Positions 6,913 to 58,806 of a DNA stretch of 64,000 bases are shown here, one piece after another. How positions within the stretch are numbered: the first letter of the stretch is position 1; each line of letters begins with the position of its first letter. The position numbers and the translations under genes were made by a program. This stretch comes from an uncultured Bacteroidota bacterium. GTDB taxonomy: Bacteria; Bacteroidota; Bacteroidia; Flavobacteriales_D; Sanyastnellaceae. Location: contig CAIZGX010000058.1 in NCBI GenBank assembly GCA_903932685.1, forward strand, positions 634 to 64,633. Direction: 5' to 3'. The notes beneath the pieces are model-generated. The model saw only the letters and a list, made by a program, of their open reading frames with translations. It had not been told where the DNA came from and searched no databases.

Positions 6913-6929
6913 CAAATATCTAATTTCAA

Positions 6930-21457: not shown

Positions 21458-21474
21458 ATAAATAATCGCTTTCA

Positions 21475-42201: not shown

Positions 42202-43463
42202 GCACGCCACTTGCGGAAAGAATGCGTCCGAAGACATTCGATGAATACGTTGGACAATCGCATTTGATTGGCAAGGGCGCTGTGTTGCGCAGTATTATTG
42301 AAAGCGGACATATACCAAGCATGATTTTCTGGGGCCCTCCGGGTGTTGGGAAAACAACGTTAGCAAATATCATTGCGCAAACACAACAACGTCCTTTCTT
42401 TTCGCTTTCTGCCATCAATAGCGGAGTGAAAGAAATTCGTGAAGTGTTAGATCAAGCCGGAAAGGGCGGACTGTTTCAGAAGAGTGCTATTTTATTCATC
42501 GACGAGATTCATCGCTTTTCAAAGAGCCAGCAAGATTCATTACTCGGTGCGGTTGAGAAGGGAGTTGTAACTCTTATTGGCGCGACAACAGAAAACCCTT
42601 CATTCGAAGTGAACGGCGCCTTGTTGTCGCGCTCGCAGGTATACACCCTGAATGCGCTCACCAAAGATGAACTCAATCAGTTATTGGAAGACGTCATTGT
42701 TCGCGATGAAGCGCTTCGCGCTAGGAATATTCAATTAGAGGAAACGCAATCCTTATTGAAATACAGCGGCGGCGATGCCCGCCGATTGCTAAATGTACTT
42801 GAGTTAGTTGTTGAATCCATTTCAGAGACGCCTTGCGTCATTAAAAACGAATCAGTAGAGAACGTCATTCAAACAAATGCTGCACGTTACGACAAGACCG
42901 GTGAAATGCATTACGATGTCATCTCAGCGTTTATTAAAAGCGTTCGCGGAAGTCATGCGCAAGCAGCAACATATTATCTAGCGCGCATGATTAAAGGCGG
43001 AGAAGACCCGCTATTTATAGCGCGAAGATTGGTCATATTGGCTTCAGAAGACATTGGATTAGCGAATCCGAATGCGCTATTGATTTCGGAAGCAACCTTT
43101 CGCGCTGTTCAAAATATAGGCTGGCCTGAAGCGCGCATTCCACTAAGTATGTGCACAGTGTATTTGGCAACCAGCGCGAAAAGCAATTCTGTCTATACCG
43201 CCATTGACGCCGCTTTGGCGTTGGTGGAACAAACGGGAGATTTGCCTGTGCCTATGCATCTTCGCAATGCTCCAACGAAATTAATGAAGGAGTTGGGATA
43301 CGGAAAGAACTACGAATACGCGCATGCGCACGAAGGGAATTTTGTTCGTCAAGAATTTCTTCCAGAAGAAATTGCATCGTCAGAATTCTACACGCCAGGA
43401 AACAATCCGAAGGAAGCGGCTATTCTAAAATGGCTTCAAGAACGTTGGGGAACGAATGAATAA
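42198..43463 (+). CDS. rarA: replication-associated recombination protein A (AAA+ ATPase)
   Basis: LAERMRP...[20 protein letters not shown] and a MgsA C-terminal domain. Confidence 0.9.
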
Positions 43464-44532
43464 TAACACGACACGAAACTTTGGACTCGATTTATTTCGA
43501 GCGTTGGCCATTGTGTTGGTTGTGTTGTCTCACGGAAAATTTTTGTTGAATGGAACGGTTCTAGAGAATTTTCCGTTCGTGAAAATGCTCGACGGCGTTG
43601 ATTTGTTTTTCGTGTTAAGCGGATTTTTAATTGGCGGAATTTTATTGAAGTCCTCTTCTGAAGGATTGAATTGGCGAGGCATTGCGCACTTTTGGAAGAG
43701 AAGATGGTTGCGCACTTTGCCGAATTATTATTTGATCTTGTTCTTGAATTTCATTTTCATTTCTTGTGGAATTATTTCCGGAGACTTAACTGTTTTCGGT
43801 TGGAAGTTTATTGTATTCCTTCAAAATTTCACAAAGCCGCTCATTGGATTTTTCTGGGAGTCGTGGAGCTTGGCAGTTGAGGAGTGGTTCTACATTTTTA
43901 CTCCAGTTATGCTTTGGGGACTACTGAAAGTGTTTCGATTGAAATGGGCTTATCTCATTGCAACGCTTGTAATGATTGCTGTTCCCTTGATCTATCGCGC
44001 TTATTCCTTTGATTCGAAGCTCGACGATTTCTGGTTCGATGTGCAGGTCCGAAAGATTGTGGTCTTTCGACTCGATGCTATTGCATTCGGATTGTTGCTC
44101 GCCTGGATTTGTTCTTTCCATAAAGATCTTTGGGACAAGTGGAAAAACGTAGGGCTTGTTTTGGGTTTGGCAATAGTTTTATTCTTGTTGAATAACAGCG
44201 CTTCCAACGCAACTTTTTATCGTCAAGTATTTTATTTCAGCATAACACCTTTCGCTATAGCACTTATCCTTCCTTGGTTTGAAGGGATTACTTCTTCATG
44301 GAAGCGCTTGGTAAGTGCCGTGACGCACATCAGTAAGATTTCGTATTCGATGTATTTAATTAACCTTGCGCTCGTTGCCCAAGTCATCGGATTGAATTTT
44401 CCTGTTCAAGGAAATGCAGATGGGATAATGAAGTACGTTGCCTATTGGTTTATTGTGATTACAGTCTCTTCGGCGCTTTACTACTTTGTGGAAAGACCGA
44501 TTCTTCGGTGGAGAGATGACGCTTCGCGATGA
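43456..44532 (+). CDS. acyltransferase family 3 membrane protein (OafA-like)
   Basis: N-terminal GLDLFRALAIVLVVLSH and about 10 TM helices. The last five codons and the stop lie inside hairpin array B. Confidence 0.75.
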   Translation: MNNNTTRNFGLDLFRALAIVLVVLSHGKFLLNGTVLENFPFVKMLDGVDLFFVLSGFLIGGILLKSSSEGLNWRGIAHFWKRRWLRTLPNYYLILFLNFIFISCGIISGDLTVFGWKFIVFLQNFTKPLIGFFWESWSLAVEEWFYIFTPVMLWGLLKVFRLKWAYLIATLVMIAVPLIYRAYSFDSKLDDFWFDVQVRKIVVFRLDAIAFGLLLAWICSFHKDLWDKWKNVGLVLGLAIVLFLLNNSASNATFYRQVFYFSITPFAIALILPWFEGITSSWKRLVSAVTHISKISYSMYLINLALVAQVIGLNFPVQGNADGIMKYVAYWFIVITVSSALYYFVERPILRWRDDASR

Positions 44533-44631
44533 CGCAACGCGTTGCGATGACACAACACGACGTGATGACAATCTGCGATTGATGACCACTTCGTGGATGA
44601 CGGCGAAGCCGATGACCGCGCAGCGGATTAA
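44515..44631 (-). repeat. mini-hairpin string, GTCATC family, array B (inverted orientation)
   Basis: GATGAC on the + strand at 44515, 44528, 44546, 44564, 44581, 44596 and 44611, with a degenerate GATTAA at 44626. Six of 7 words are self-complementary. Confidence 0.85.
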
Positions 44632-45647
44632 TGAATGTGGTTTGCGATGTTACGTGCGATGGAAGGACCTTCGTAGATGAAGCCCGTGTATACTTGAACA
44701 AGGGAAGCACCTGCATCTATTTTTTCTTGCGCATTTTGTGAAGTGTGAATTCCTCCAACGCCAATGATTGGAAATGCGCCGTTCGATTTTGAATGCAAAT
44801 AGCGAATCACATCGGTTGAACGCGCACGCACAGGAGCTCCGCTCAATCCGCCCATTCCAATGCTTTGAATGGTTTGTGTACTCGTTTGCAAATTCTCTCT
44901 TGAAATGGTTGTGTTCGTTGCAATGACTCCCGCAATTTTTGTTTGAAGAACAATTTCAACAATGTCATTCAATTGATCGTCTGTTAAATCCGGAGCAATT
45001 TTTAAAAAGATTGGACGCGGTTTTGGGAAGGTGTTATTTGTTTCAGCAAGAGCAGAAAGAATTTTCATTAATGGCTCTTTCTCTTGCAACTCGCGTAAAC
45101 CCGGTGTATTCGGAGAGCTTACATTCACCACGAAATAATCTACACAATCGTGAAGGGCATTCAAACAAATTAAATAATCACTCAACGCATCTTCATTCGG
45201 AGTGATTTTATTCTTTCCGATATTTCCTCCAACAATAATATTTGATTTTCGTTTTCTCAAGCGTACTGCAGCGTCTTCAACCCCACCGTTATTAAATCCC
45301 ATGCGATTAATCAACCCATTATCTAACGGAAGTCTGAATAATCGTGGTTTGTCATTTCCAGGTTGTGCCTTCGGAGTAAGCGTTCCGATTTCCACATGTC
45401 CGAATCCTAACAATGCCAACTCATCTATCCAACGCGCATCCTTATCAAACCCAGCAGCCAATCCCACCTTATTGGGAAATTCAATTCCTGCTACAACAAT
45501 CTTGTTTTCTTTCGCTTTGAAAATTGATTTTAAAATCATTTTTCCTCCAGGCATTCTTGAAGAAAATTTCAATAAATCCATGGCCAAGTAATGCGCCTTC
45601 TCCGGAGAAAAAAGAAAAAAGAAAGGTTTAATCAGAAGCTTATACAT
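44628..45647 (-). CDS. pyrD: dihydroorotate dehydrogenase (quinone), class 2
   Basis: [18 protein letters not shown] and GVGGI motifs. Start taken at [11 protein letters not shown] (45647). Confidence 0.9.
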
Positions 45648-45661
45648 GCTGCAAAAATACA

Positions 45662-45892
45662 GCATCTCATCCATCAATCGTAGATTGTCATCACCTTCGG
45701 TGTCATCCGCTCCGCGGTCATCGGCTTCGCCGTCATCAATCGCAGATTGTCATCACCTTCGGTGTCATCCGCTCCGCGGTCATCGGCTTCGCCGTCATCA
45801 ATCGCAGATTGTCATCACCTTCGGTGTCATCGCAACGCGTTGCGTCATCGCGAAGCGTCATCCGCTCCGCGGTCATCCACGAAGTGGTAATG
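45662..45892 (+). repeat. mini-hairpin string, GTCATC family, array C (largest, with a 62-bp higher-order repeat)
   Basis: 13 perfect GTCATC cores between 45687 and 45877. The 14 intervening or flanking words are all self-complementary. Blocks 45687-45748 and 45749-45810 are identical. Confidence 0.9.
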
Positions 45893-45995
45893 GTGAATAA
45901 CTCTGTTGATATGTGTGAATTTCACTTTCGTCGCAAGGCTTCGTATGCCGTTTATTTTTGATAAAATCGAAAGGTTAACAAAATAGTAAAGGCAT

Positions 45996-46547
45996 ATGAT
46001 TACATTTTTTGGAAAAAAGAAAATCTCAGCAGAACGCGCAGCAACGCTGTTCGTGAATACACTGTTGGATTCAGTGGAAGGTGGTTTTTCGGAAGTTGCT
46101 GGATTTATCCGCGATACGCCTGAGCTAGTTAGTACTCCGAAAATTAGTGATGAGGAATACGGTAAATTCTTAATGATTGCCATTGTAGGAAACTTCAATT
46201 ACTTAAATGAGCATTTCCGCGATGGTGAAGGCGATTTAATTGTTCAGCATTGTATAGATCAGTTCGCACCTGTTTTCGATTTGTCTCCAATTGCCTTCCA
46301 AGCCAAATTGAACGACTACAAGAAGTTCATGGCTCATGTTAATTTCCCTTCGAAGAATATTTTGTACAGCATGTCTAAGGCTGTATTCTTCAAATATGAA
46401 TTGAATCAATACCAAGACGAGTATTTCAGAAGCATGAATACGCCGAATCCAATTTTCTTGAAGAGCTTGGATGAAGTGATGCGTAATTTCATTTGGGACT
46501 GGGAAGCATTCTGCGACAAATACAAGGTTCAGTTAGGCGGAGCCTAA
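45996..46547 (+). CDS. hypothetical cytoplasmic protein (183 aa)
   Basis: ORF only, apparently helical, with no signal peptide or motif recognised. It is bracketed by arrays C and D. Confidence 0.5.
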   Translation: MITFFGKKKISAERAATLFVNTLLDSVEGGFSEVAGFIRDTPELVSTPKISDEEYGKFLMIAIVGNFNYLNEHFRDGEGDLIVQHCIDQFAPVFDLSPIAFQAKLNDYKKFMAHVNFPSKNILYSMSKAVFFKYELNQYQDEYFRSMNTPNPIFLKSLDEVMRNFIWDWEAFCDKYKVQLGGA

Positions 46548-46656
46548 CACGCGTGGCGATGACAATCTTCGATTGATGACGGCAAGGCCGATGACACAAC
46601 ACGTTGTGATGACACTTTCAGTGATGACCTCTTCGCGTATGACACTTCGTGATTAA
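46548..46656 (-). repeat. mini-hairpin string, GTCATC family, array D (inverted orientation)
   Basis: Opens with the palindrome CACGCGTG (46548-46555). GATGAC at 46558, 46575, 46590, 46608 and 46623, then TATGAC (46638) and GATTAA (46651). Confidence 0.8.
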
Positions 46657-48147
46657 TTAATTTTGAATGAAGTATTCTAAGACGGTATCTTTTCCAGATT
46701 TCAAATCTTCTAAACTTTGTTCCAAAGGAATGTTTGGAAGTATGGGCGTTCGCGAATAACTGAACGTGTTTTTATAGTTGTATCGAATGGTCGGAACCGA
46801 ATAGGAAATTCCAGATTCTGAAAGTTGAACGGTGGTGGCGTTACCCCAGGTGCCGTTGGTAGTGGCGTTGCAAGGAGTTCCAATAAGTATTGCTCGATGA
46901 TTGCTTTGAAGCAATTGCGCGAAATCGCAAGCCGCAGAGACTGTATTTCCATTCATAAAAACGGCCATCTTTCCTGTGTAGACATGTTCTTTGCGCTGAC
47001 GCTGAGGGATACTGAAAAATGCGGTGTCTGATTCTTCCAAGGGCGTTTGACTCAACAAGTAGTATTGGTACATATCTTCACTCCGCTTGAATCGTTTCTC
47101 TGTGAATTCTGGGAAATGTTTCATTCTGAAATTTGAAACAATCTGATACGAATAGTCACTCGCTTTCCAGATAATATTACTCGGTGTGTTCAGTCCGGAT
47201 GGAGTTAAAAAGGAGCAGAGGTATTCAACCATTGAACTAGATCCGCCGGGGTTGTCACGAACGTCAATAGCAATATGAAGGATACCTAACTCTCTCGCCG
47301 CTTGAAAGAACTTTCTGATTTTCTTGACGTCGTTTTGAAAAGGTCGTGAAGAAAAGGAGCGAACGGTTAAAACAGCTTTGTCTTCATTCAAATAAAAAGT
47401 AGCTTCAATGTTTTTTTTATTTGGTTTGAAATGTTCGCGTCTAATTTTTTGAAGTTGCTTTATATCTACCAATTGCACTTCAACGCTGTCTATTTTATTG
47501 TCAACGCGGAAAACAATAGTCTCAACATCCCAATCGTTTTGCAAAGGATTTGCAAAAAAATGTGCTGGCGTGTAATAATAGGCTGCGGCTTCGTCGCTGG
47601 CATTCATAGCATTTCCCTCGTCGACGCTCCATTCTTTCGCAAGCTTGTGCAATTCAGTCATGGAAAGTTTTCCAACAGAAAGTATTTCACTTCCAAAAGG
47701 AGGACCACCAATTTGAGTTTCTTCAACATAAAATTTTCCGTCAATGGGTTGAATGAACAAAGGCAAAAAGCCAGAGTCGTATCCACATGATTCGAACAAC
47801 AGGCGATACACGTGTGTCTGCAAATGCGAGTCTTCAACAACACGAATAAATCGATTTAAATTTTGAGCATGTTGAATCATTGTTCTGTCTTCAGAATAAT
47901 AGTTAAAAGCTTTTTTGTACGCTTCGCCAAATGCCTCCTTGCCGCAATAGGCATATGGATCTGGATGAACAGTAAGAAGTTTTTCTTCAAGCTCAATCAG
48001 ATCGTCAATTAAATGGTCAGCGCAAATGCGTTCAATACTTCGTTCGCAGCGATAATACGCTTTTGAATTCGGATCGAAGCACGTGTCGGATTGAGCAGAT
48101 ACTTGAATAGCTGCCAAAGTAAAAAGTAACAAAAGAAGTATACGCAC
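46657..48147 (-). CDS. peptidase S41 family protein
   Basis: 496 aa with a GTG start and a signal peptide. Carries the S41-type motif IDVRDNPGGS. Confidence 0.65.
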   Translation of the reverse strand: MRILLLLLFTLAAIQVSAQSDTCFDPNSKAYYRCERSIERICADHLIDDLIELEEKLLTVHPDPYAYCGKEAFGEAYKKAFNYYSEDRTMIQHAQNLNRFIRVVEDSHLQTHVYRLLFESCGYDSGFLPLFIQPIDGKFYVEETQIGGPPFGSEILSVGKLSMTELHKLAKEWSVDEGNAMNASDEAAAYYYTPAHFFANPLQNDWDVETIVFRVDNKIDSVEVQLVDIKQLQKIRREHFKPNKKNIEATFYLNEDKAVLTVRSFSSRPFQNDVKKIRKFFQAARELGILHIAIDVRDNPGGSSSMVEYLCSFLTPSGLNTPSNIIWKASDYSYQIVSNFRMKHFPEFTEKRFKRSEDMYQYYLLSQTPLEESDTAFFSIPQRQRKEHVYTGKMAVFMNGNTVSAACDFAQLLQSNHRAILIGTPCNATTNGTWGNATTVQLSESGISYSVPTIRYNYKNTFSYSRTPILPNIPLEQSLEDLKSGKDTVLEYFIQN

Positions 48148-50193
48148 TTATTCGTCGTTGCGTTTTTTAACCATGGTTAAGATCGTCGCTAACGCCACAG
48201 TCTCTCCAGTTTCGTCGTAAACGTCAACCAAGAACTTCACAATTCCTTTTGGAATATCGTCTTCGCTTCGTTTCTCTTGCGCAATTTTTTCCTTCACGGT
48301 AAAGCGAACGGCAATGGTCATTCCCGGATATACGGGTTTTGTAAAGCGCGCTTCGTCTATTCCATAATTCAACAAGACTGGACCTTTCTTCGGGTCAACG
48401 AACAATCCTGCAGCTTTCGATAAAACGAAATATCCGTGAGCCACGCGGCGCTCGAAGATGGTTCCTTCCAAAGAGGTAGCGTCCATGTGCGCGTAGAAAT
48501 TATCTCCACTCACATTCGCGAAGTTCACAATGTCGGCTTCAGATACAGTGTGCTTGTGTGTGAAGACAGTGTCTCCAACAACAAGGTCTTCGAAATGCTG
48601 ACGGAACAAGTGGGGTTGTGCTTCGGCTTGTTCGCCGCCTTGCTGATAAACACCAGTAATGGCAGTCAACATAGTTGGCGATCCTTGAATAGCCGTGCGT
48701 TGCAAGTAATGCATAACACCGCGCTTTCCACCCATCTCTTCTCCACCTCCGGCACGACCCGGTCCGCCGTGAACAAGCATAGGCATTGGGCTTCCGTGAC
48801 CGGTGCTTTCTTTCGCGCTAGCTCTGTTCAATACTAAAATTCTTCCGTGATGCGTTGCTGCATTCAAAACGAAATCGCGAGCAATGGCTGTGTCGTTCGT
48901 GGTAATGCTACACACCAAACTTCCTTTTCCTAATTTCGAAATAGCAACAGCCTCTTCAGTTGTTGAATAAGGCATAAGGGTAGCGATAGGGCCGAAGGCT
49001 TCCACGCTGTGCGAGCTTAATCTTTCGAAAGGTTTGTCGTTGAGCAATAGCGTTGGCGACATGAAGGCTCCCTTCGTGCCATCCGCTTCAATAAGATTTA
49101 TGGTATCGTTTCCGAATACAACTTCACTTTCTTTTTTCAATTCGTTCAAGGCAGCAACAACGTCTTCGCGCTGAGCCATTCCAGCTAAAGATCCCATGCG
49201 AACTTTTTCGTTGCGCGGATCTCCAATAGAGGTTTGTCCAAGTGCTTTCACAAGCGCTTCTTGAACGTCTGACAAGTATTTTTCAGGAACTAAAATTCTT
49301 CTTACTGCGGTACATTTTTGTCCGCACTTCACTGTAATTTCTTTGCGAACTTCCTTCACGAATAAATCGAATTCTTCGGTGCCAGGCGCTGCGTCGAGTC
49401 CGAGTATAGCGGCGTTCAGCGAGTCGGCTTCCATGGTGAAGGGTATGGATTGGTCTACCAATCGGGGATGTGACTTCAACATTTTTCCGGTTGAAGCAGA
49501 GCCGGTGAAGGTTACCACGTCTTGCATTTCCAAATGATCGAAAATACCGTTGGCACTTCCGCAAATCAATTGCAAGGCGCCTTCCGGAAGAATTCCTGAA
49601 GCGTGAATATCGCGAACAACCACTTCTGTTACATACGAGGTCAATGTTGCAGGCTTCACCACAGCAGGAACACCCGCTAATAGGTTCACCGCAATCTTTT
49701 CCAACATTCCCCATACCGGGAAATTGAATGCGTTAATATGAAGCGCAACACCTTCCTTCGGAACCATAATGTGGTGACCAATGAAGGTTCCTTCTTTCGA
49801 AAGTTTGGCCAATTCTCCGTCAACATAAAACGAAGAATTTGGGAACTGCTTACGCAAAGAGGCGTAAGCAAAGAGGTTTCCGATTCCACCGTCAATGTCA
49901 ATCCAAGAGTCAATCTTAGTAGCCCCCGTCTTCACGCTCACAGCGTAATACGCGGCTTTGCGCTCGGTTAAATAGAGGGCCAATGCCTTCAACATTCTAC
50001 CGCGTTCTTGGAAGGTCATCTTGCGAAGTGCTGGACCGCCTGTCTCGCGACCGTAGTTCAGCATAGCGCCGAAATCCAATCCGGAACTGTCAGCTACCGC
50101 TACCAATTCTCCATTTACTGCATCGAAAAGTTCGGTTCCTTTTCCGCTGCCGGAAATCCATTGCCCAAGGGCGAAATTTTGAAGTTGTTGCAT
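48148..50193 (-). CDS. paaZ: bifunctional aldehyde dehydrogenase / MaoC-type hydratase (PaaZ-like)
   Basis: 681 aa with an N-terminal ALDH domain (catalytic Cys context CGQKCTAVRR) and a C-terminal hot-dog MaoC domain. This is the same architecture and length class as PaaZ. Confidence 0.75.
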   Translation of the reverse strand: MQQLQNFALGQWISGSGKGTELFDAVNGELVAVADSSGLDFGAMLNYGRETGGPALRKMTFQERGRMLKALALYLTERKAAYYAVSVKTGATKIDSWIDIDGGIGNLFAYASLRKQFPNSSFYVDGELAKLSKEGTFIGHHIMVPKEGVALHINAFNFPVWGMLEKIAVNLLAGVPAVVKPATLTSYVTEVVVRDIHASGILPEGALQLICGSANGIFDHLEMQDVVTFTGSASTGKMLKSHPRLVDQSIPFTMEADSLNAAILGLDAAPGTEEFDLFVKEVRKEITVKCGQKCTAVRRILVPEKYLSDVQEALVKALGQTSIGDPRNEKVRMGSLAGMAQREDVVAALNELKKESEVVFGNDTINLIEADGTKGAFMSPTLLLNDKPFERLSSHSVEAFGPIATLMPYSTTEEAVAISKLGKGSLVCSITTNDTAIARDFVLNAATHHGRILVLNRASAKESTGHGSPMPMLVHGGPGRAGGGEEMGGKRGVMHYLQRTAIQGSPTMLTAITGVYQQGGEQAEAQPHLFRQHFEDLVVGDTVFTHKHTVSEADIVNFANVSGDNFYAHMDATSLEGTIFERRVAHGYFVLSKAAGLFVDPKKGPVLLNYGIDEARFTKPVYPGMTIAVRFTVKEKIAQEKRSEDDIPKGIVKFLVDVYDETGETVALATILTMVKKRNDE

Positions 50194-50263
50194 CTGATTT
50201 TTCTCTTGTTGCGAAGTTAATCGGAAAGTGCCGCACTTGGAATGATTGATGTATTTTTACAAC

Positions 50264-51313
50264 ATGAATAAGGTTACGCATTTAATTACCGGCGGTTGTG
50301 GTTTTGTGGGAAGAAACATGGTGAAGAGACTCTTCAACACCACCGAGGCGCAGTTGATTTTCATCGATGATTTATCGGTTGGAACACACCCCGACACTTG
50401 GCTCAATGCCACGAAAACGAACTACGGCGAAGGCTTCACAGTTTACAACGGAAGATTGCTATTCATTCATGCCGATGCGTTGAAGGTGATGCGCGCGTTT
50501 TCAGAAGACGAGAAATACTTTGGAAAGAATTTTCAGTTTGAAATAGATCGCATCAACGATGTCTTCCATTTCGCAGCTATTGTAGGTGGAAGAACGAAGA
50601 TAGACGGAGATCCGATGGCCGTTGCATTAGACCTTGCTATTGATGCGGAAATGTTTTACTGGGCCTGCAGATACAAGCCGGAAAGGCTCATGTATCCAAG
50701 CTCTTCAGCCGCTTATCCAATCGATCTTCAGACAATAGACGGAGCTATAGCATTGAAAGAGTCTGACATTGATTTCAAGCGAATGGGCGAACCCGATATG
50801 ACTTACGGATGGAGCAAACTAACAGGTGAGTTCCTTGCGAAAATTGCAGCCTCACATTACGGTTTGAAGGTGACGTGCATTCGTCCGTTTAGCGGATACG
50901 GTGAAGATCAAGATTTGACTTATCCCGTTCCCGCTATTGCAGCCCGCGCAGCGAAGAAAGAAGATCCATTTGAAGTTTGGGGAAGTGGTAATCAAGGCAG
51001 AGACTTCGTTCACATCGACGATGTAATCGACTGCATCTTGTTGGCCATGGATCACATTCACGACGGAACAGCCATTAATATTGGAATGGGAAAACTCACT
51101 TCCTTCAATGAAATTATTCGCGTGTTCTGTGGATATGCAGGATACGAGCCTACCATCAAGCCTTTGTTGGACAAGCCGGTGGGCGTGCATTCGCGCTATT
51201 GCGACATGACCTACGTTCAAGAGAAGTTGGGATGGACAGCAAAGATTTCCATTGAAGAAGGAATGAAGCGCGTGTACGATGCGGCCGTGAAAAAATTAGC
51301 AGCGCAGCAGTAG
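50264..51313 (+). CDS. NAD-dependent epimerase/dehydratase (SDR family)
   Basis: Rossmann motif ITGGCGFVGRN and YGWSK (YxxxK). Confidence 0.8.
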   Translation: MNKVTHLITGGCGFVGRNMVKRLFNTTEAQLIFIDDLSVGTHPDTWLNATKTNYGEGFTVYNGRLLFIHADALKVMRAFSEDEKYFGKNFQFEIDRINDVFHFAAIVGGRTKIDGDPMAVALDLAIDAEMFYWACRYKPERLMYPSSSAAYPIDLQTIDGAIALKESDIDFKRMGEPDMTYGWSKLTGEFLAKIAASHYGLKVTCIRPFSGYGEDQDLTYPVPAIAARAAKKEDPFEVWGSGNQGRDFVHIDDVIDCILLAMDHIHDGTAINIGMGKLTSFNEIIRVFCGYAGYEPTIKPLLDKPVGVHSRYCDMTYVQEKLGWTAKISIEEGMKRVYDAAVKKLAAQQ

Positions 51314-52588
51314 ATGAAGAATAGAACAATTGTTTGCTTCGGTCCAGGTCCGCGCTTCAAAGGCGGAATGCAGAACTACAACACTTCGTTGGCGTTGGCA
51401 TTGGACAAGGAAGAGCGAAACAATGTTCACATTGTTAGTTGGACGCAGCAGTATCCGGCTATCATTCCCAGAGAATTCGTAGACAAAAGCAGCACAACAG
51501 ATTTGTTGGAAGGAAGTCGCGTGAAAGTGACTTACTTGACGAATTACAACAATCCGTTTAGTTGGATTGAAACAGCCAATTACATTATTTCACTGAAACC
51601 AGAAATGGTCACCATTCAGTGGAGCATAGCCCTACAAGGATTACCCATGGCTTTCATTGCAAAGCGCTTGCGCAAGGCGGGGATTCATGTGGTGTTCGAT
51701 ATTCACTTTGTAATTCAAAAGGAGCACAGCTCATTAGATAAGTTTTTGACGAAGTATGCCTTAAAACACGCCTCATCTTTTGTGGTTCACGCTTTGCATA
51801 CGTTTGAAGAATTGAAAACAGTTTTCCCCGAACGTTCGTTCGGTTTGGTAGATCAGTTGGATATTCATGAAAAGGCATTCACATCGGTTGTGAAGTTATA
51901 TCATCCGATTTACGACTTGTACAAGCCCATTCCGAATTTCAATGTTGAAGAAGAAAAAGCGAAGTTGGGCTTGAAGAAACACGTCTTTTTGTATTTCGGA
52001 TTCATTCGGAAGTACAAAGGGCTAGACTTGGCCATTCAAGCATTTGCTGAATTGTGTAAGGAAAGGGACGATGTTTCGTTTTTGATTTGCGGAGAGTCTT
52101 TTTGGAAGACACTCGATGATTCGAAGTGGAGCACGAAGGTGAAACAAATGCTATTCGGTTGGGCGAAGAAGATTGTGCTGCGCAAATCAGACGACGAGCG
52201 TGAAGACAATCCGTTGGAATGGATAGAAAAAATGAGTATTCAAGAAAACTGCGTGGTGTTCAATCGATTCATTTCGAACGAAGAATTGCCCAAGTTTTTT
52301 CAAGTGTCCGATGCGGCAGTGTTGTTCTACAGAACGGCAACACCCAGCGGAATTGAGTCGTTGAGTTATAATTTCAAGATGCCTATTTTGGCGACTAAAG
52401 TTGGACATTTTCCGGAAACAATAGTAGACGGATTCAACGGCTATTTAGCCGAAGCAGAAGATATTCAAAGCATGAAAAATCAGATGCTTCGCATTTTAGA
52501 ATCTCCTGTAGACAGAGAGAATGTTGCGAAGGCAACAGAGAACATGAGTTGGACCAATTACGCAAAAGCCATTTGCAATTATGAGTAA
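51314..52588 (+). CDS. glycosyltransferase, GT4 (GT-B) family
   Basis: 424 aa with a C-terminal GT1/GT4 pattern (PSGIESLSYNFKMPILATKVGHFPETIVDGFNGYL). Confidence 0.75.
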   Translation: MKNRTIVCFGPGPRFKGGMQNYNTSLALALDKEERNNVHIVSWTQQYPAIIPREFVDKSSTTDLLEGSRVKVTYLTNYNNPFSWIETANYIISLKPEMVTIQWSIALQGLPMAFIAKRLRKAGIHVVFDIHFVIQKEHSSLDKFLTKYALKHASSFVVHALHTFEELKTVFPERSFGLVDQLDIHEKAFTSVVKLYHPIYDLYKPIPNFNVEEEKAKLGLKKHVFLYFGFIRKYKGLDLAIQAFAELCKERDDVSFLICGESFWKTLDDSKWSTKVKQMLFGWAKKIVLRKSDDEREDNPLEWIEKMSIQENCVVFNRFISNEELPKFFQVSDAAVLFYRTATPSGIESLSYNFKMPILATKVGHFPETIVDGFNGYLAEAEDIQSMKNQMLRILESPVDRENVAKATENMSWTNYAKAICNYE

Positions 52589-53213
52589 CATTGTACACCA
52601 CAGAAAGAGCTATGAAAAACATAGCTTAGAGGTAGAAGATTTGAAAGCCACTCCGCATGAAATGTTGGAGTTTTGGTTAAGTGAAGTAGAGGAGTTGCAT
52701 GATTTTAATGCCATGGTCGTTAGTAGCGTTGATGCTTCCGGACAGCCGCATTCGCGTGTGGTTTTGCTTCGCGGGGTTAATGAAGATGGATTGAAGTTCT
52801 ACACGAATTACTCCTCTAACAAAGGACAAGAGCTTGAGCTAAACAACAAAGTCGCTTTAAATTTTTTCTGGCCAACTGTTGAACGTCAAGTTCGGGTGGA
52901 AGGTGAATTACACAAATTGAGTGACGCCGAGAGCGACGCTTATTTCAATAGTCGTCCGCGTGAAAGTCAAATAGGAGCGTGGGTTTCACCGCAGAGTGCT
53001 ACTATAGATTCGCGAGAAGTGTTGAACGAGCGCTTCAGAGAGTTTACAAATAAATTTGAAGGTCATCCGGTGCCTCGTCCTGCCCATTGGGGCGGATACA
53101 TCATTCGTCCGAAGTATTTCGAGTTTTGGCAGGGAAGACCGAATCGTTTGCACGATCGATTGACCTATTCTTTGGTTGAAGGAAATTGGTCAATTGGAAG
53201 AATGGCACCGTGA
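52581..53213 (+). CDS. pdxH: pyridoxamine 5'-phosphate oxidase
   Basis: RVVLLRG, RQVRVEG, and a C-terminal FWQGRPNRLHDR. Confidence 0.9.
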   Translation: MSNIVHHRKSYEKHSLEVEDLKATPHEMLEFWLSEVEELHDFNAMVVSSVDASGQPHSRVVLLRGVNEDGLKFYTNYSSNKGQELELNNKVALNFFWPTVERQVRVEGELHKLSDAESDAYFNSRPRESQIGAWVSPQSATIDSREVLNERFREFTNKFEGHPVPRPAHWGGYIIRPKYFEFWQGRPNRLHDRLTYSLVEGNWSIGRMAP

Positions 53214-53279
53214 TTCCCTAGAAAAATAGTTGGATTAAATTTTTTATTATCTTTAATAAAAATTTATTTTCCTTAATAT

Positions 53280-54800
53280 ATGTATAAAGCAATTCGTGCC
53301 CTACTCGTTTTTTCTGTTGTAATATCCTGTTTGTGCGCATCCTCCCAAGTAGAAGTCGTTAAGCAAAAACGATTCGAACATAACGGTGCTGTCGCAACAA
53401 GCGTTACTCCAAGCAATAAGGTAATAACCTATTCCATTATTTCGGAAAAAGGAGAAGACGATCAGTTGGAAATTGTCGCCTATGATGAAAAATTAGAGGA
53501 AGAAGGAAGGTTTCAAGCGAAATGTTCAGAGCGAAATATTTTCAAGACGCACGCTCTTTCGGGAACAGGAGAGTATTATTTCTCTCTAATGATTGATAAG
53601 GGAAGAGAAATTCATTCCGTTGTTTTTAATACAAGCACTTTGGAAGGAACAGAACTTCGTGTACCGTTGGAGAGGAAATTCGAACCGAATGGAAATTTGG
53701 ATTTCTTCGGCGGATCTTCGACCACTTGTTTCAAGAATAAATTTTTCATTTTAGGTACTGTTAAAAATGTGCCCTGTATACTTGTGTACAACATGCAAAC
53801 AGGAACACAGCACATTACCTTCATTCCAGGTATGGACAAGAATAACCGCGTTTCCTTTTTAAGCACGGTGGAAGCAGCTCCTTCAATTCAAGTTATGTTT
53901 TTTCATTCCAAACCGAAGAAGATTGATGCGCAATACATTGTTTCAATCAATGAATTCGGAGAGATAGAAGGAAAGCCAGTTTCGATTATGGCGCAGAAAG
54001 AAAAATTGCTTATCGATGGGAATGTGACTTGGGTAGATGAGCACACTTCTCTTATTTGCGGAGCAACAGGTGAGAAATCGAGCATCGCAAAGGGTATGTA
54101 TATTTTGGAAATAAAAGATGGAGAAGTCGTTCGAAGAAACGATTACAATTTCAATGATTTCAAAGATTTTTATTCACTCTTGAGTGTAAAGACACAGAAT
54201 AAAATTGAAAAAAAGAAAAGCAAAAAGAAGAATTTCGAATCGCAGTGCTACATGGTTACTCACCCGGTCGCGTTCAGCGATAAAACATGGACGGTTGTAG
54301 GAGAGGTGTTTTATCCGACTTACCGCGCCGAGACCCAGACCTCTTATGTGAATGGGAAGACCGTTACGCGAACCGTAATGGTATTCGATGGATTCCAATA
54401 TACGCACGCGGTTGTCTTGCAGGTAAATGAAGAGTTAGAAAAGATCAATGACTTTACATTTGAATTAGAAATTTCGGAGAATCCTATGTTTCCGAAGAAA
54501 TACATTCGCACTGCTCAAATGGGATCTCAGTTGAATTTCTATTACGCGGATGTCTTTAATTTTGGACATGTTTCTCTTGAAGAAGGGGAATTGGAAGTTT
54601 CTCCATTGGTTGATATTGTTGATTCTGACAAGGATTTAAAGGATTCAGAGAAAGTGACCAACCTCATTAACTCGAATGTAAAATATTGGTACAAAGATTT
54701 TTATCTAATTACCGAAACATTTCGGGCAAAGGATAGTGATGAGTCACTTGGTAATAAGCGTAAAATGTTCGTTCAATTCAAAAAAATAAAAATTGAATAA
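53280..54800 (+). CDS. secreted hypothetical protein (506 aa)
   Basis: Signal peptide only. No motif recognised. Confidence 0.55.
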   Translation: MYKAIRALLVFSVVISCLCASSQVEVVKQKRFEHNGAVATSVTPSNKVITYSIISEKGEDDQLEIVAYDEKLEEEGRFQAKCSERNIFKTHALSGTGEYYFSLMIDKGREIHSVVFNTSTLEGTELRVPLERKFEPNGNLDFFGGSSTTCFKNKFFILGTVKNVPCILVYNMQTGTQHITFIPGMDKNNRVSFLSTVEAAPSIQVMFFHSKPKKIDAQYIVSINEFGEIEGKPVSIMAQKEKLLIDGNVTWVDEHTSLICGATGEKSSIAKGMYILEIKDGEVVRRNDYNFNDFKDFYSLLSVKTQNKIEKKKSKKKNFESQCYMVTHPVAFSDKTWTVVGEVFYPTYRAETQTSYVNGKTVTRTVMVFDGFQYTHAVVLQVNEELEKINDFTFELEISENPMFPKKYIRTAQMGSQLNFYYADVFNFGHVSLEEGELEVSPLVDIVDSDKDLKDSEKVTNLINSNVKYWYKDFYLITETFRAKDSDESLGNKRKMFVQFKKIKIE

Positions 54801-54802
54801 GT

Positions 54803-55636
54803 TTGAAAATTCGATTAACACTATGGGTTTGTCTATTATCAATGTCTGCGGATGCCCAGTATTTCGTTGATATTTTTTCGTTCAATAGACAGGCTTACAA
54901 CATCCCTTCAGGCGCCCAAACGAGTGACCTTTTTGTCAATGCGTTTATTCCAAAGGTTCTGAAAAACGGCAACACCGTTTTTGTTCGTGCACATTATGAA
55001 AAGCTTTCGATGCAAAGAGATTCATTGTCTGCCGATTATTCTTCGATCACACTTCCTATTGGCATGCAAGTTCAATTGAAGAATCCGAAATGGAAATTCA
55101 CAGGCTTGATTATTCCGAAAATAGCCGGTGCGGATTTGAGCGCGGCGTTTTCAGATGTTTTTCAAATTGGAGCGTATTCATTATTCACGGTAACAGAGTC
55201 TGAAAAATTTCGATACAAATTCGGATTGTATTACAATCGAGAATTCTTCGGGAATTTCTTTGTGCCGCTCGTTGGAGTTGATTGGAAGGTGTCTGATCGT
55301 TTTTCCGTATTCGGCACACTGCCTCAGAGCTTTAAGGCTTCCTATGCGATATTTCCTTCTCGCGTGAATGCAGGATTGGCCTTTCGCTCCATGACAAGAT
55401 CATTTCGTGGTGAAGACAACAACACTTTTGTTCGTTACAATGAATTGCAATTCAAAGCGTTTTTCGATTTTTATGTAACTCCAAAGAATGTAGTCTTTGT
55501 CGAAGGCGGATATTTCCTCGGGAAAACACCGCTACTTTATAACAATACCGACACCAAGAATCCTGTTAATTCTAATTTATTGAAGGAAGGGATAGCATTC
55601 CCTTTGATTAATGCTGGATGGGCGTTAAGATTCTAA
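54803..55636 (+). CDS. putative outer-membrane beta-barrel protein
   Basis: TTG start gives the signal peptide MKIRLTLWVCLLSMSADAQ. Alternating amphipathic strands, with a C-terminal aromatic residue (ALRF). Confidence 0.5.
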   Translation: MKIRLTLWVCLLSMSADAQYFVDIFSFNRQAYNIPSGAQTSDLFVNAFIPKVLKNGNTVFVRAHYEKLSMQRDSLSADYSSITLPIGMQVQLKNPKWKFTGLIIPKIAGADLSAAFSDVFQIGAYSLFTVTESEKFRYKFGLYYNREFFGNFFVPLVGVDWKVSDRFSVFGTLPQSFKASYAIFPSRVNAGLAFRSMTRSFRGEDNNTFVRYNELQFKAFFDFYVTPKNVVFVEGGYFLGKTPLLYNNTDTKNPVNSNLLKEGIAFPLINAGWALRF

Positions 55637-57921
55637 AAAAGTTCGGTTAAAATTCGAAGGGTTTCTTTCGACGCGTCTTTCGGATGCAACGCTGTGTCTG
55701 AAATACCCGAGATTACCCGTGTAACATCGTGGTCTATTTTTCCTTCAACAAACCAATCGGAACCTTTCGCAACTGTAATGTAAACCGAATAGTTGTGGTG
55801 CATGGTTCCAGGGCGTTCACCAATGATATGTAAGACACATTTTTTATTTGTTGAAATGGAATCGCCAAAGAGCTGTTCGCCGCAGCGGTAGCCCGCACGA
55901 ACTCTTCCATGTTGAATGAATAAATTGTTTTTGCTCAACGTGTATTTGTCCTTCAATAATACATTCAGTTCTTTAACATAAGGTTCCAAATGTCCTTGGT
56001 CAAGAATAGAAGAAACATTCAATCCGTCAGAAACTACAACCTGAATATCGGGAGTTTTATTCTTCCATTTCGATTTTAAAATTTCCAAAGCGTAGATGCT
56101 ATCGCGTGAAAGTTGTTCGCCCGATTGCGGATGGTAGATGTAATCTTTTCGGTTTGAAGAAAGAGTGGCCAGCGCTATTCCTTCAGTAAGTGATTTCTTA
56201 AAATTCGGAGGTGTTTCTTCCCAAAGACATTTCTTAGCATCTGCATAAAGTAGGCGAATTTCTTGCTCAAGGTCAGGATTCATTTCCCAATAATCCTTTC
56301 CGAATCCTTTCGCAATTGGAACACCTCGTTCTCGAACTCGTTCAATGCATGCAAGACCTTCCGAATAAATTTCGTCCATTGGCTGCGTATCACCTTTCAA
56401 TTTTCGATATTGGTAATACATCCAAACAGGATCTCCAAAGTGATTTGAAGGTTTGTTGTTTTCATCAATAATTTCCATCTGCTTGAAAAACGCCCACATG
56501 GCATCATTGATCTTGTATCCAAACTTTTCGCGAATGCGCAGGTGATCGCTAAACGATGTGGTTAAGTAACTCAACATAGGATCGTTCTTCGTTGGAAGAG
56601 CCATGAGATAACCCGGATTGGCTGGCATGATTTGATCAATGCACCAGTCTAAATCATCGAGTGAAACATCCATGTGCAGCGTGGTGCAAATGTCCAAGCC
56701 AATCATGAGTCCGTGTAATTTCCCCATCACTAAATCTTCCAAGCAACAACGAACCAATTGTTCTTTCGTTCTGAAAACTTCCGGACCAATGAATCCAGCA
56801 ACATCATTCAAATGCACCCAAGACTCTTCGTTGAGTTGTTGTTTTAATCCGCGCCACAGGCCGTATTTACGCGACTCGTGAATAAGCATGTCGAAGCCTT
56901 CTCCGTGCCCGTTCGTTTCATCAGCACCTTGTCCGGTTTCAGCATAGAGTCCGAATTTACCTTTGCGCTGTGAGGCGTATTTCTTAAGTTTTTCAATGGT
57001 TACATCGAAGGTCTGATTTGCTTTCACAGTGCCGGCAATACTCTGAAACCACATGCCGGTTTGACCGTTGTAAGTCTTTTCTACTTCAGCTTGAATATCG
57101 ATGTGCGCCAACACAGAATGTGAAAGCGTATTTTCTAGTTTGAAGGTGGTAAGCAAATCGTATAAAGCCATTTCAATTTTCGCAACCGATTCCGGATTGC
57201 TTGAAACAGGATTGTTACCTAGAACCAAATCACCAACACTGTAGCTCCACGCGTCGAACACCTGCCAAACAATGTCTTCAATGTTATCGGTGGGAGAGTT
57301 GGGTTGAACGCGAGCGCTCATGTATCCCTTCGAACCCATTTGAGTTCCGGGAAGCGGATGGAAAATTTTGCTGCTAATTGCGATGAGCTCTTGGTTCGAC
57401 ATGAGCTTCACAACACAAGCAATGATGTCGCTTGTTAAGTAGGGAAGTAGGTCATGAATCTCAGTTTCAGAGGACTTCAAGAGAAGTTCTTTAAAATCGT
57501 TCATGCGAAGTTTACCAATGGCTTTTCCAGATTCTGTTTCTTGAAAAGCGCGTGTAGATTGTTCAATGAATTCCGATTGTTCATCGGTGAAAACAGAATG
57601 TTTGCGAATGTTGTCAAGGCTGGTTTCAGCAAGAAGCATGCGTGCCTTCAACCGATCTTCATCGCTTGCGGCAGCTATTCCAGCAATTTCATCGCCTTCT
57701 TTGAATTCATTGGCAGCGCCAAGTAATTGTCGATACAGGGTAACGTCGAAACTTCCTTTTTGACGTTGAATGTATTGAAACAAATCTTCACCAACGAGGG
57801 GAGAAGGGACTTCAATTTTTTCGAAATGAAAATGATCAGACTCCCCGATAACTTTCCCTGAAACAAGTGTGTACGAGACTGTCGCCATTCCTAGTTTGCT
57901 TAAAAAATCGCGACGCTCCAT
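55633..57921 (-). CDS. eutBC: fused ethanolamine ammonia-lyase large and small subunits (EutB-EutC) with a twin-arginine-like N-terminal extension
   Basis: Residues ~45-500 align by eye to EutB (EGDEIAGIAAASDEDR, LYAETGQG, AGFIGPE, MGKLHGLMIGLD). Residues ~520-762 align to EutC (VVVSDGLN, HIIGERPG). The N-terminus is MERRDFLSKLG. Confidence 0.85.
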   Translation of the reverse strand: MERRDFLSKLGMATVSYTLVSGKVIGESDHFHFEKIEVPSPLVGEDLFQYIQRQKGSFDVTLYRQLLGAANEFKEGDEIAGIAAASDEDRLKARMLLAETSLDNIRKHSVFTDEQSEFIEQSTRAFQETESGKAIGKLRMNDFKELLLKSSETEIHDLLPYLTSDIIACVVKLMSNQELIAISSKIFHPLPGTQMGSKGYMSARVQPNSPTDNIEDIVWQVFDAWSYSVGDLVLGNNPVSSNPESVAKIEMALYDLLTTFKLENTLSHSVLAHIDIQAEVEKTYNGQTGMWFQSIAGTVKANQTFDVTIEKLKKYASQRKGKFGLYAETGQGADETNGHGEGFDMLIHESRKYGLWRGLKQQLNEESWVHLNDVAGFIGPEVFRTKEQLVRCCLEDLVMGKLHGLMIGLDICTTLHMDVSLDDLDWCIDQIMPANPGYLMALPTKNDPMLSYLTTSFSDHLRIREKFGYKINDAMWAFFKQMEIIDENNKPSNHFGDPVWMYYQYRKLKGDTQPMDEIYSEGLACIERVRERGVPIAKGFGKDYWEMNPDLEQEIRLLYADAKKCLWEETPPNFKKSLTEGIALATLSSNRKDYIYHPQSGEQLSRDSIYALEILKSKWKNKTPDIQVVVSDGLNVSSILDQGHLEPYVKELNVLLKDKYTLSKNNLFIQHGRVRAGYRCGEQLFGDSISTNKKCVLHIIGERPGTMHHNYSVYITVAKGSDWFVEGKIDHDVTRVISGISDTALHPKDASKETLRILTELF

Positions 57922-58048
57922 ACTTGCTTTGTTTCTCTAAATTTAAAAATTAATTTCTTCCCTCTCTTACCTCAGGTCGAAAGATATTTCGACCCTATAT
58001 CTTCCCCTCTCTTCCCTTTTATCAATGCAAATCTAACGAACTCTCGCC

Positions 58049-58196
58049 CTCATCACAACGTGTGGTGTCATCCGCTCCGCGGTCATCGGCTTCGCCGTCA
58101 TCAATCTCCGATTGTCATCACCTTCGGTGTCATCGGCTTTGCCGTCATCCACGAAGTGGTCATCAATCTCCGATTGTCATCCGCTCCGCGGTATTG
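58049..58196 (+). repeat. mini-hairpin string, GTCATC family, array E
   Basis: Perfect GTCATC at 58067, 58082, 58097, 58114, 58129, 58144, 58159 and 58176. Degenerate copies are CTCATC (58049) and GTATTG (58191). Eight of 9 words are self-complementary. Confidence 0.85.
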
Positions 58197-58210
58197 TGTA
58201 TTTTTGATCC

Positions 58211-58798
58211 ATGGAATTCAAAAAAGGAGATCACGTTCGTTTTTTAAACGATACCGGAGAGGGAGTAATCGTCGGTTTCCCTCAAGCCGATACCGCTACG
58301 GTAGAGGATAGCAGTGGCTTTCCATTCGATCACCCACTTCGAGAATTAGTAAAAATTGAAAATTCAAAACACGAGTTTTCACAATACAATCAAGTGCAGC
58401 CGAATACGCGCGAGATGCTCGATCGGAATTTGGACGCGCATGCAGTGAAAGCGGCATCGAAAGACTTCAAGAACAGATACAAAGAGCGCGCGGCGAATGA
58501 CTTTCCACACAACGCCGATTTGTTCGAGGTTGATTTGCACATTCATGAATTGCTCGACAATTATGAGCGCATGACGAACGGAGAAATCGTAACCATTCAA
58601 ATGGAACACTTCGAGCGTATGCTGGCCATTGCAGAAAAGAAAAAAGTTAAGAAGGTTATTTTCATTCATGGAGTGGGGCAGGGAGTCTTGCGCGCAGAGA
58701 TTCGTTCATTCATCAAAAGCTATTATCCACAATGTGAATTCCTCGATGGGAATTACCAGAAATACGGACACGGCGCAACAGAAGTTAGATTCAGATAA
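58211..58798 (+). CDS. Smr domain protein with KOW-like N-terminus
   Basis: C-terminal Smr pattern (VDLHIHEL...VIFIHGVGQGVLR). N-terminal FKKGDHVRFLNDTGEGVIVGF. Confidence 0.75.
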   Translation: MEFKKGDHVRFLNDTGEGVIVGFPQADTATVEDSSGFPFDHPLRELVKIENSKHEFSQYNQVQPNTREMLDRNLDAHAVKAASKDFKNRYKERAANDFPHNADLFEVDLHIHELLDNYERMTNGEIVTIQMEHFERMLAIAEKKKVKKVIFIHGVGQGVLRAEIRSFIKSYYPQCEFLDGNYQKYGHGATEVRFR

Positions 58799-58806
58799 CA
58801 TTCAAC

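Follow-up and report, generated by a model that had tools for sequence, protein, structure and literature searches.

A short non-coding repeat array, here called array D, lies between two convergent genes within a 64,000-nucleotide stretch of contig CAIZGX010000058.1 from an uncultured Bacteroidota bacterium (the whole stretch is referred to as the window). Array D is genuine, if rather decayed compared with other members of its repeat family, whose unit consists of a constant hexamer, GATGAC (the core), and a palindromic word of 7-13 nt. With about even confidence, array D is read as a strand-symmetric hairpin minisatellite at the level of the DNA that resembles repetitive extragenic palindromic (REP) sequences and bacterial interspersed mosaic elements (BIMEs), changes by the turnover of whole units, is tolerated at gene ends and can rearrange the genome. 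On this reading it is neither a conserved structured RNA nor an essential terminator.

Unit anatomy and pairing of the GATGAC family

The unit set comprised 296 units with 64 distinct words and was drawn from the window and related loci, not from a whole genome. The words are 7, 9, 11, 12 or 13 nt long and the units 13-18 nt. Perfect Watson-Crick pairing from the word ends inward was found in 279 out of 296 units and in 50 out of 64 distinct words, leaving a centre of 2-4 nt; for a perfect 3-bp palindromic word the chance is about 1/64 each. Between neighboring cores, the terminal C of one pairs with the initial G of the following one, which adds an extra closing C-G pair to word stems of 2-5 bp with loops of 2-4 nt, and the array thereby becomes a string of hairpins of 3-6 bp joined by ATGA. 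At least 19 different stems occur, including GGC/GCC, CGC/GCG, ACC/GGT, CAC/GTG, ACT/AGT, AAC/GTT, AATC/GATT, AAAC/GTTT, CTTC/GAAG, ACAAC/GTTGT, GCAAC/GTTGC, and ACGAC/GTCGT.

Covariation was scored on two alignments without gaps, one of the distinct 9-nt words and one of the distinct 11-nt words, and compared with 500 shuffles. Paired bases occupy 97% of the stem cells in the 9-nt words and 100% in the 11-nt words, and the covariation scores (0.56 and 0.70) exceed those of the shuffles (0.13 and 0.15), none of which reached the observed values. Sliding the partner column by 1-3 positions left 15-64% of the cells paired and a covariation of at most 0.14. A reading of this DNA made from the letters alone (the sequence-only reading) had noticed that several words differ only in their loops, and the tally across the window and related loci agrees with it: single differences between words affect the loop in 19 cases and the stem in 4 among the 9-nt words (33% expected in the loop) and in 7 and 0 cases among the 11-nt words. 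Mirrored double changes are over-represented as well (5 out of 37 and 4 out of 13 for the 9-nt and 11-nt words, about 8% expected). Only 4-5 G·T pairs were found in more than 1000 stem positions, and neither alignment contains a one-sided change from G-C to G-U. Most of the words that fail to pair combine two known words as chimeras (GGCGGAGCG, CGCGAAGCC, ACCGAAGCC, ACAACACGACGT, and ACAACGCGTTGC) and, judging by their composition, are recombination scars.

The features of array D and of its four sister arrays are collected in table 1. The sequence-only reading had placed a GTCATC/GATGAC array at a convergent junction, abutting the stop codons of both flanking genes; this placement was confirmed and all coordinates, cores, words and both stops were reproduced. 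Each of the four words between the exact cores forms its own hairpin under DNA parameters. The array extends into the 183-aa open reading frame (ORF) upstream, where GGCGGAGCC corresponds to the last codons (LGGA, followed by TAA) and the stop codon together with the next base (TAAC) forms a degenerate first core; relatives carry TAAC and CGCTTCGCG at the position of the leading hairpin. At the position of the imperfect word CTCTTCGCG, CGCTTCGCG is found in L007 and in relatives (L-numbers are the labels of the contigs and loci compared). The terminal anchor unit directly adjoins the stop of the peptidase S41 gene and is kept in every array-bearing relative.

Table 1. Coordinates of array D, its flanking genes and its sister arrays in the window
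Feature	Position	Strand	Remarks
Array D	46548-46656	+	non-coding
CACGCGTG, 8-nt palindrome	46548-46555	+	
Opening word C-ACGCGTG-GC	46548-46557	+	diverged counterpart of the relatives' conserved first unit, CGCTTCGCG or CGCGATGCG
Exact GATGAC cores (n = 5)	46558, 46575, 46590, 46608, 46623	+	block 46558-46628
Palindromic words AATCTTCGATT, GGCAAGGCC, ACAACACGTTGT, ACTTTCAGT		+	between the five exact cores
Decayed unit	46629-46643	+	imperfect word CTCTTCGCG, then mutated core TATGAC (46638)
Terminal anchor unit	46644-46656	+	ACTTCGT and end core GATTAA (46651-46656)
Leading hairpin GTTAGGC-GGA-GCCTAAC	46532-46548	+	7 bp; contains word GGCGGAGCC (46536-46544)
183-aa ORF	45996-46547	+	no Pfam family; stop TAA 46545-46547; 3' end supplied by array D
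Peptidase S41 gene	46657-48147	-	convergent with the 183-aa ORF; stop is the complement of TTA 46657-46659
Sister array A	21492-21561	-	5 exact cores; degenerate end units to about 21470-21606
Sister array B	about 44515-44628	+	7 cores; convergent junction
Sister array C	about 45672-45877	-	13 cores; just upstream of pyrD; inverted relative to B
Sister array E	58067-58181	-	8 cores; divergent junction eutBC / Smr-domain gene

GATGAC occurs 50 times in the window (29.4 +/- 5.1 times in shuffles), and 38 of these copies are the exact cores of the five arrays, which lie between genes or overlap only their last codons and whose units all run head-to-tail. The Poisson probability of at least five cores on the same strand within 71 nt is about 1e-11. 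Cores are spaced 13, 15, 17 or 18 bp apart, most often 15. Outside the arrays, isolated GATGAC is not significantly depleted (15 observed, 20.5 expected under a fourth-order Markov model, z = -1.2); a depletion suggested by a first-order model (39 expected) was dropped on the grounds of the fourth-order result. Tandem Repeats Finder at a score of 30 did not detect array D because its units differ too much from one another.

These statistics rule out chance, and hardly any weight can be given to the broader suggestion that the arrays are accidental, an assembly artefact or a coding repeat. ORFs are indeed called across them: the GTCATC reading direction is free of stop codons across array C, and gene callers for this reason predict spurious ORFs of 84-97 aa (84 aa at 45646-45900 of the window, plus strand; a 97-aa gene at 2674-2967 of L001). 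However, no reading frame is maintained across units 13 and 17 nt long, the product of the called ORF has no Pfam match on record, and arrays recur in several species and in independent assemblies (ENA, JGI, NCBI, and Logan).

Unit turnover, inversion and new sites

Metagenome contigs were scanned with a protein anchor for junctions orthologous to that of array D. Among relatives with 92-96% identity in the 183-aa protein, the junction holds 0, 1, 2, 4, 6 or 7 units. No array is present in L131, L133, L137, L138, and L139, where the two convergent genes abut or overlap; L130 has two decayed units, L132 one unit, L135 two, L143 and L080 four, L136 six and L134 seven. All junction arrays begin with the same first unit, TAAC followed by CGCTTCGCG or a word close to it, and end with the same last unit, GATGAC ACTTCGT GATTAA; their inner units vary in number, identity and order and belong to the same word pool as elsewhere in the genome. 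Metatranscriptome contigs contain the same variants, with position 46535 joined to 46657 and position 46537 joined to 46590 or 46627. The existence of sister lineages without any spacer at this junction indicates that array D is dispensable. In a neighbor-joining tree of the 183-aa ORF, array-bearing and array-less lineages interleave; the tree is short and recombination is likely, and therefore no count of gains and losses was drawn from the tree.

The sequence-only reading had proposed that hairpin potential is kept by compensatory changes. The covariation of the stems supports this part of the proposal, and one in-place pair was found, AATC..GATT in the window and AACC..GGTT in L134, L143, and L080 (followed by GGCAAGGCC in the window and GGCAAAGCC in L143), for which a compensatory change is plausible. 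The history of the locus is a different one: as far as the aligned junctions tell, their differences are overwhelmingly gains, losses or replacements of whole units or the absence of the whole array, and not point substitutions followed by compensation. No target-site duplication was seen when filled and empty sites were compared; the flanks are replaced and not cleanly interrupted.

Unit numbers of arrays B, C, and E differ even between strains that are 96-100% identical. Over all comparisons, array D holds 0-7 units, array B 7 or 9 cores, array C 5-13 and array E 8 or 12, the latter in a strain about 97% identical to that of the window. Array C contains a 62-nt higher-order repeat of four units with 98% identity, and in array E of L279 a block of four units is duplicated, the word at the junction (ACCGAAGCC) being a chimera of ACCGAAGGT and GGCGAAGCC. 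Block duplications and chimeric words point to out-of-register alignment at shared loops or cores, either by slippage or by unequal or ectopic recombination.

Arrays B and C are mutually inverted and share units, and the pyrD segment between them (about 1.2 kb) is flipped in L131, L133, L137, L138, L139, and L140, with breakpoints inside the arrays. The inverted pyrD occurs in all five contigs without array D, and the window form in each contig where array D and pyrD can both be seen. A Bacteroidetes-type -7 promoter box, TATTTTTG (window 45640-45680, minus strand; we take the consensus to be TAnnTTTG), is found in the gap between array C and the pyrD start (ATG TAT AAG) and moves together with pyrD in the inverted lineages. 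All five window arrays are located at strand-switch junctions (5 out of 17, compared with 0 out of 38 co-directional junctions, p = 0.002), an association that is partly a by-product of the pyrD inversion; co-directional arrays exist in L102, L110, and L051. No rule was found that relates the orientation of the cores to the flanking genes in the window and related loci.

A filled and an empty site could be compared directly at a second convergent junction, between a Bac_transf gene and an aminotransferase gene. L011 carries an array of 13 units there (7747-7949), and the same junction is empty in L279 (21585-21600), which belongs to the species of the window and is 84% identical to L011. The first core of the L011 array coincides with a native ATGAC, and the aminotransferase reads into the array and stops at a TGA in the second core. 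Array B is similarly joined to its neighbors: the TGA inside its second core is the stop of the acyltransferase gene and its end core GATTAA holds the stop of pyrD on the other strand. The acyltransferase ends with ...RDDASR and this TGA (window 44515-44532), its C-terminal codons being donated by the array.

The preferred reading of array D as a DNA-level minisatellite accounts for these patterns by an element that would act, or simply spread, symmetrically on the two strands. In DNA made single-stranded, during replication or on a displaced strand, each unit of either strand would snap into its own mini-hairpin, and identical linkers and shared loop cores would permit strands to realign out of register. 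Slippage or ectopic recombination would be the engine of change, and its outcomes would include the gain and loss of units or blocks, chimeric words, the shuffling of words between arrays, the loss of whole arrays and, between oppositely oriented arrays, the inversion of the intervening DNA. Arrays would settle where they are harmless, at gene ends and especially abutting convergent genes, and may there supply a gene's final codons together with its stop, TGA or TAA. Palindromy may be kept because units that form hairpins are amplified, or by hairpin-templated repair.

The DNA mini-hairpin signature and alternative explanations

The loops of the units follow a narrow rule. The loop-closing pair is C-G (5'C, 3'G) in 216 out of 235 triloop units (92%) and in 43 out of 49 distinct words, and GNA or its complement TNC makes up the triloop of 202 out of 235 units (86%) and of 32 out of 49 distinct words, where 12.5% is expected (p ~1e-17). 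GNA lies on the top strand in 92 units and on the bottom strand in 110, and its N is most often A (138), followed by G (35), C (22), and T (7). Nearly every odd-length word has a C-GNA-G centre on one strand or the other. We know of no RNA rule that matches this combination of loop preference and closing pair. Among DNA sequences, only GNA loops form mini-hairpin DNA and the melting temperature of GCGNAGC decreases in the order A (76 °C) > G > C > T (PMC13037366), and the stability of mini-hairpins depends strongly on the closing pair (PMC3201870). The units, with C-GNA-G centres and C-G closure, carry the known motif of the mini-hairpins d(GCGNAGC) and d(GCGAAGC) (Hirao, Yoshizawa; PMC13037366, PMC3201870). 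The published sequences GCGAAGC and CCGAAGG recur letter for letter within words such as GGCGAAGCC and ACCGAAGGT, and the order of abundance of N is the published order of stability of d(GCGNAGC) (PMC13037366). The natural cases cited in a review are solitary hairpins, found at single-strand origins of phages and plasmids and at one phage promoter (PMC13037366), whereas the GATGAC units form genomic tandem arrays with the motif on both strands and hairpins predicted from sequence.

Under DNA parameters, the minimum-energy fold of arrays A, C, and E consists of one hairpin per word on most strands tested (z -3.7 to -4.8). Array B (z = -0.8, -2.1) and array D (z = -2.4, -1.9) fold less well; set against the value of about -4 for A, C, and E, and together with one mutated core and one mutated word, this bears out the earlier description of array D as diverged. 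Under RNA parameters, array D (z = +0.5, -0.5) and array B (z = +0.3, -1.2) are no better than shuffles. The sequence-only reading had also implied an RNA hairpin array conserved by compensatory substitution, a view at odds with this result, with the lack of G-U intermediates and with the turnover of whole units at the locus. The absence of such intermediates and the strand-symmetric GNA/TNC loops argue for a constraint on DNA, or on two strands, rather than for a conserved structured RNA.

An element that works at the level of RNA is an unlikely explanation. The arrays would then be transcribed as strings of hairpins in 3' or 5' untranslated regions and serve as two-way terminators, insulators or barriers to 3' exonucleases, as the REPs of Escherichia coli do, and strict Watson-Crick pairing would persist since folding is required of both strands. 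Three of the window's five arrays take up the whole space between the stop codons of convergent genes, and no canonical intrinsic terminator that could serve instead (a G+C-rich stem of at least 5 bp and a U-tract) was found within or beside arrays B-E in a scan of positions 43000-59000. On the other hand, the arrays themselves are not followed by a U-tract (downstream of array D lies TTAATTAATTTTG, with no T-run adjacent to a hairpin), two of the five lie upstream of divergent promoters, and the sister lineages that lack the spacer at the array D junction have overlapping genes. Array D is probably transcribed, as RNA-derived contigs contain it and other arrays; the contigs across array D span both convergent genes, and termination there is consequently not tight, unless DNA was carried over. 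Four metatranscriptome runs gave no RNA contig over array C, although contig depth cannot show absence. The loop preference and the closing pair, finally, fit a stability rule that is specific to DNA. At gathering thresholds, only a tRNA passes in an Rfam search of the whole window. At permissive E-values, the region 44300-46900 gave matches to C/D-box small nucleolar RNAs (14-18 bits compared with thresholds of 39-49, E >1), an identity that was rejected: the matches are below threshold and caused by UGAUGA, and no CUGA D box follows the UGAUGA-like cores.

Several points weigh against the DNA-level reading. Arrays A, C, and E are structured as RNA too and beat shuffles (z -1.2 to -4.0), and the contrast between the DNA and RNA z-scores is partly an effect of the energy models and therefore supporting, not decisive. 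Strict Watson-Crick pairing would be equally expected if RNA hairpins work in both directions of transcription, and such a bidirectional function would also explain the missing G·U pairs. The metatranscriptome contigs, which carry no direction, run through array D, with DNA carry-over being possible. For a putative seeding of new loci there is one example, with microhomology to the native ATGAC in L011. Lastly, arrays are present at the B and C positions in every sampled lineage, and GATGAC is identical in all array-bearing metagenome-assembled genomes (MAGs). Neutral drift explains these last two observations poorly; concerted evolution, a recognising factor or selection is needed.

A recognising factor could be a protein that binds the double-stranded DNA. 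The arrays would then be iteron-like platforms for a nucleoid-associated or regulatory protein, with the words as incidental or secondary sites. The invariance of the hexamer next to variable words, the identity of the core across all array-bearing MAGs and the position of arrays C and E upstream of promoters are in line with such a platform. The explanation is nevertheless very unlikely: it leaves more than 90% perfect palindromes with C-GNA-G centres unexplained, the core spacing does not match the helical repeat, between 0 and 13 units are found at one locus in relatives, and isolated GATGAC is not enriched outside the arrays.

Relation to known repeats and range of the family

Among the closest known systems are the REPs, BIMEs and REPINs (doublets of REPs) of the Proteobacteria and the atypical REP-like hairpins that go with the subclass 2.6 TnpA-Y1 of Bacteroidetes. 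Like these, the GATGAC family consists of many short extragenic palindromes (38 cores in five arrays within 64 kb) clustered at gene ends, with a constant short word beside a hairpin whose stem changes in pairs; it is variable between strains, prone to recombination, and its function is hard to establish. In REPs, the guide tetranucleotide GT[AG]G precedes the hairpin foot on its 5' side at a distance of 0-2 nt (PMC6006769). The word adjoining the hairpin is instead GATGAC/GTCATC in 296 out of 296 GATGAC units, and no GTAG or GTGG was found at the hairpin feet. REP stems measure 7-20 bp with loops of 2-5 nt, compared with stems of 2-5 bp in units of 13-18 nt, and REPs form inverted doublets, in contrast to head-to-tail arrays of up to 13 different words.

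The genus of the window organism encodes a RayT-like Y1 transposase of 183-192 aa, annotated by JGI as "REP element-mobilizing transposase RayT" (in L278, 183 aa at 16661-17212, minus strand; PF01797, 27.6 bits; HuH-like motif MPDHTHGLL). The gene has a fixed locus between PadR and peptidase S46 genes in L278, L281-L283, L285, and L286, and is missing from the same site in the window (6843-6929), L276, and L277. No GATGAC unit flanks it in any of these six contigs, where the nearby hairpins are different and AT-rich, and there is accordingly no REPtron; other RAYT (REP-associated tyrosine transposase) copies in the genomes were outside the scope of this comparison. A phmmer search of PDB sequences with the RayT protein yielded nothing but spurious matches. 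In the literature, a TnpA-Y1 of subclass 2.6 is listed for Fluviicola taffensis, which NCBI places in the family Crocinitomicaceae; atypical REP-like hairpins are described for subclass 2.6, and the tabulated REPs have stems of 8-10 bp (PMC6006769). The logic of REP/RAYT systems resembles that of the GATGAC family, yet their defining features are absent.

The transposase bears on the proposal that the units are enzyme-mobilised micro-REPs, for which the prospects are poor. A RayT-like HUH/Y1 nuclease specific for single strands, or another site-specific enzyme, would recognise the hairpin and GATGAC and cut the linker, units would be inserted 3' of ATGAC-like targets, and arrays would grow unit by unit. 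A guide word beside a variable hairpin follows the logic of REP/RAYT and IS200/IS605 elements (PMC6006769), and the presence of RayT in the genus, the TnpA-Y1 of F. taffensis, the coincidence of the first L011 core with a native ATGAC at a site empty in a relative and the identity of the core in all array-bearing species point the same way. Against these stand the RayT genes without flanking GATGAC, and arrays that vary between near-identical strains even though the window strain, L276, and L277 have no RayT at that locus. Chimeric words and block duplications indicate homologous or slipped misalignment and not cutting at the core, and the stems are far shorter than those of any REP listed for RAYTs.

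A related and similarly improbable pair of ideas gives the unit a role of its own. The units may be nano-elements, single-stranded DNA mini-hairpins of 13-18 nt with their GATGAC, which a dedicated enzyme moves or copies singly 3' of ATGAC-like targets; or they may form a DNA-hairpin platform kept by the host, with priming signals or signals that exclude single-stranded DNA-binding protein, like those of phage G4 and RSF1010 ssiA, or with built-in recombination sites that flip genes such as pyrD. If either holds, the arrays would be, to our knowledge, the first chromosomal arrays of functional DNA mini-hairpins.

Variable-number tandem repeats (VNTRs) such as the mycobacterial interspersed repetitive units are intergenic tandem arrays of near-identical units whose copy number varies by slippage or unequal recombination. 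The GATGAC arrays share with minisatellites and VNTRs the intergenic tandem organization and the polymorphism of unit number between close strains, whereas their units are constant over only 6 nt and the remainder comprises about 20 different palindromic stems. Clustered regularly interspaced short palindromic repeats (CRISPRs) likewise alternate constant and variable segments. In the GATGAC arrays, however, the constant part is a non-palindromic 6 nt (23-47-nt repeats in CRISPRs), the variable part is a palindrome of 7-13 nt taken from a limited pool that recurs within and between arrays, as opposed to unique spacers, and no cas genes were found among 20 flanking proteins scanned. Direct repeats of the heptamer TAACTGA occur between genes in Beggiatoaceae, Cyanobacteria and some Bacteroidetes (PMC4679880). 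They too are a short, lineage-restricted word in intergenic arrays that are present or absent between relatives and have no assigned function. In contrast to the GATGAC arrays, which have palindromic inserts and no orientation rule, only the heptamer is repeated, no palindromic words are reported, and the orientation is mostly forward, just upstream of start codons (PMC4679880). No description of GATGAC-type arrays was found in the literature searched.

The window matches contigs from freshwater lake and river metagenomes, among them L005 (100% identical) and the MAG GCA_947491445.1 (about 97% identical). A pattern of four cores, searched in one genome per species, gave 6 true arrays, in which the cores are separated by different palindromic words (L011, L051, L080, L102, L110, and L119), among at least 120 loci listed. 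The MAGs that hold them are labelled Flavobacteriales, Crocinitomicaceae or Bacteroidota and come from lakes or rivers where the isolate name gives the source; the other matches listed (about 110) are plain repeats in unrelated taxa, apparently mostly coding. L011 and L080 are syntenic with the window organism at about 84% nucleotide identity. More distant relatives (L141-L154, 183-aa protein 41-74% identical) have no arrays and no analogous clustered hexamer. Among the IMG/VR viral contigs, none of the 119 loci listed for the four-core pattern has palindromic words and GATGAC-ACAACACGTTGT-GATGAC has no match, and the family does not look phage-borne. Among the matches listed, it seems restricted to a narrow set of freshwater Flavobacteriales/Crocinitomicaceae lineages. 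Head-to-head pairs of arrays were found, among the loci compared, only in L110 (3441-3573) and L119 (819-1083), where opposite arrays meet (GATGAC ... CGCTTCGCGGAGCG ... GTCATC), an arrangement absent from the window.

The genes that flank the arrays are ordinary housekeeping genes, and a type IX secretion system sorting domain identifies the organism as a member of the Bacteroidota. Two convergent genes, one for a GH20 hexosaminidase and one with a TonB_C domain, border array A. A single 762-aa ORF (55633-57921, minus strand), with array E 146 nt upstream, has both EutB and EutC domains, pointing to a fused large and small subunit of ethanolamine ammonia-lyase. Elsewhere in the window, a 36-nt tandem repeat of 2.9 copies (60559-60664) comes after a tRNA (60431-60504) and before a TacA-like antitoxin ORF and a GNAT acetyltransferase (to 61553), the last two likely a TacAT-type toxin-antitoxin pair. 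Between two ORFs (19646-19743) there is also a degenerate tandem repeat, with about 3.3 copies of a 27-nt unit, that is unrelated to the GATGAC family.

The arrays carry a warning for annotation and assembly: spurious ORFs are predicted across them, contigs end in them, and array D was missed by Tandem Repeats Finder. They could also serve as high-resolution strain markers in lake metagenomes. Even if the family is only a selfish minisatellite, it would still be a case of palindromy maintained without a conserved RNA. If the preferred reading of array D is true, abundant freshwater Flavobacteriales carry a library of varied mini-palindromes on a 6-nt linker that obeys the rules of DNA, not RNA, mini-hairpin stability. 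Such a library would be a natural test bed for the formation and action of d(C-GNA-G) mini-hairpins in living cells and a source of fast genome change in lake bacteria through unit turnover, altered C-termini and stop codons, and gene inversion.

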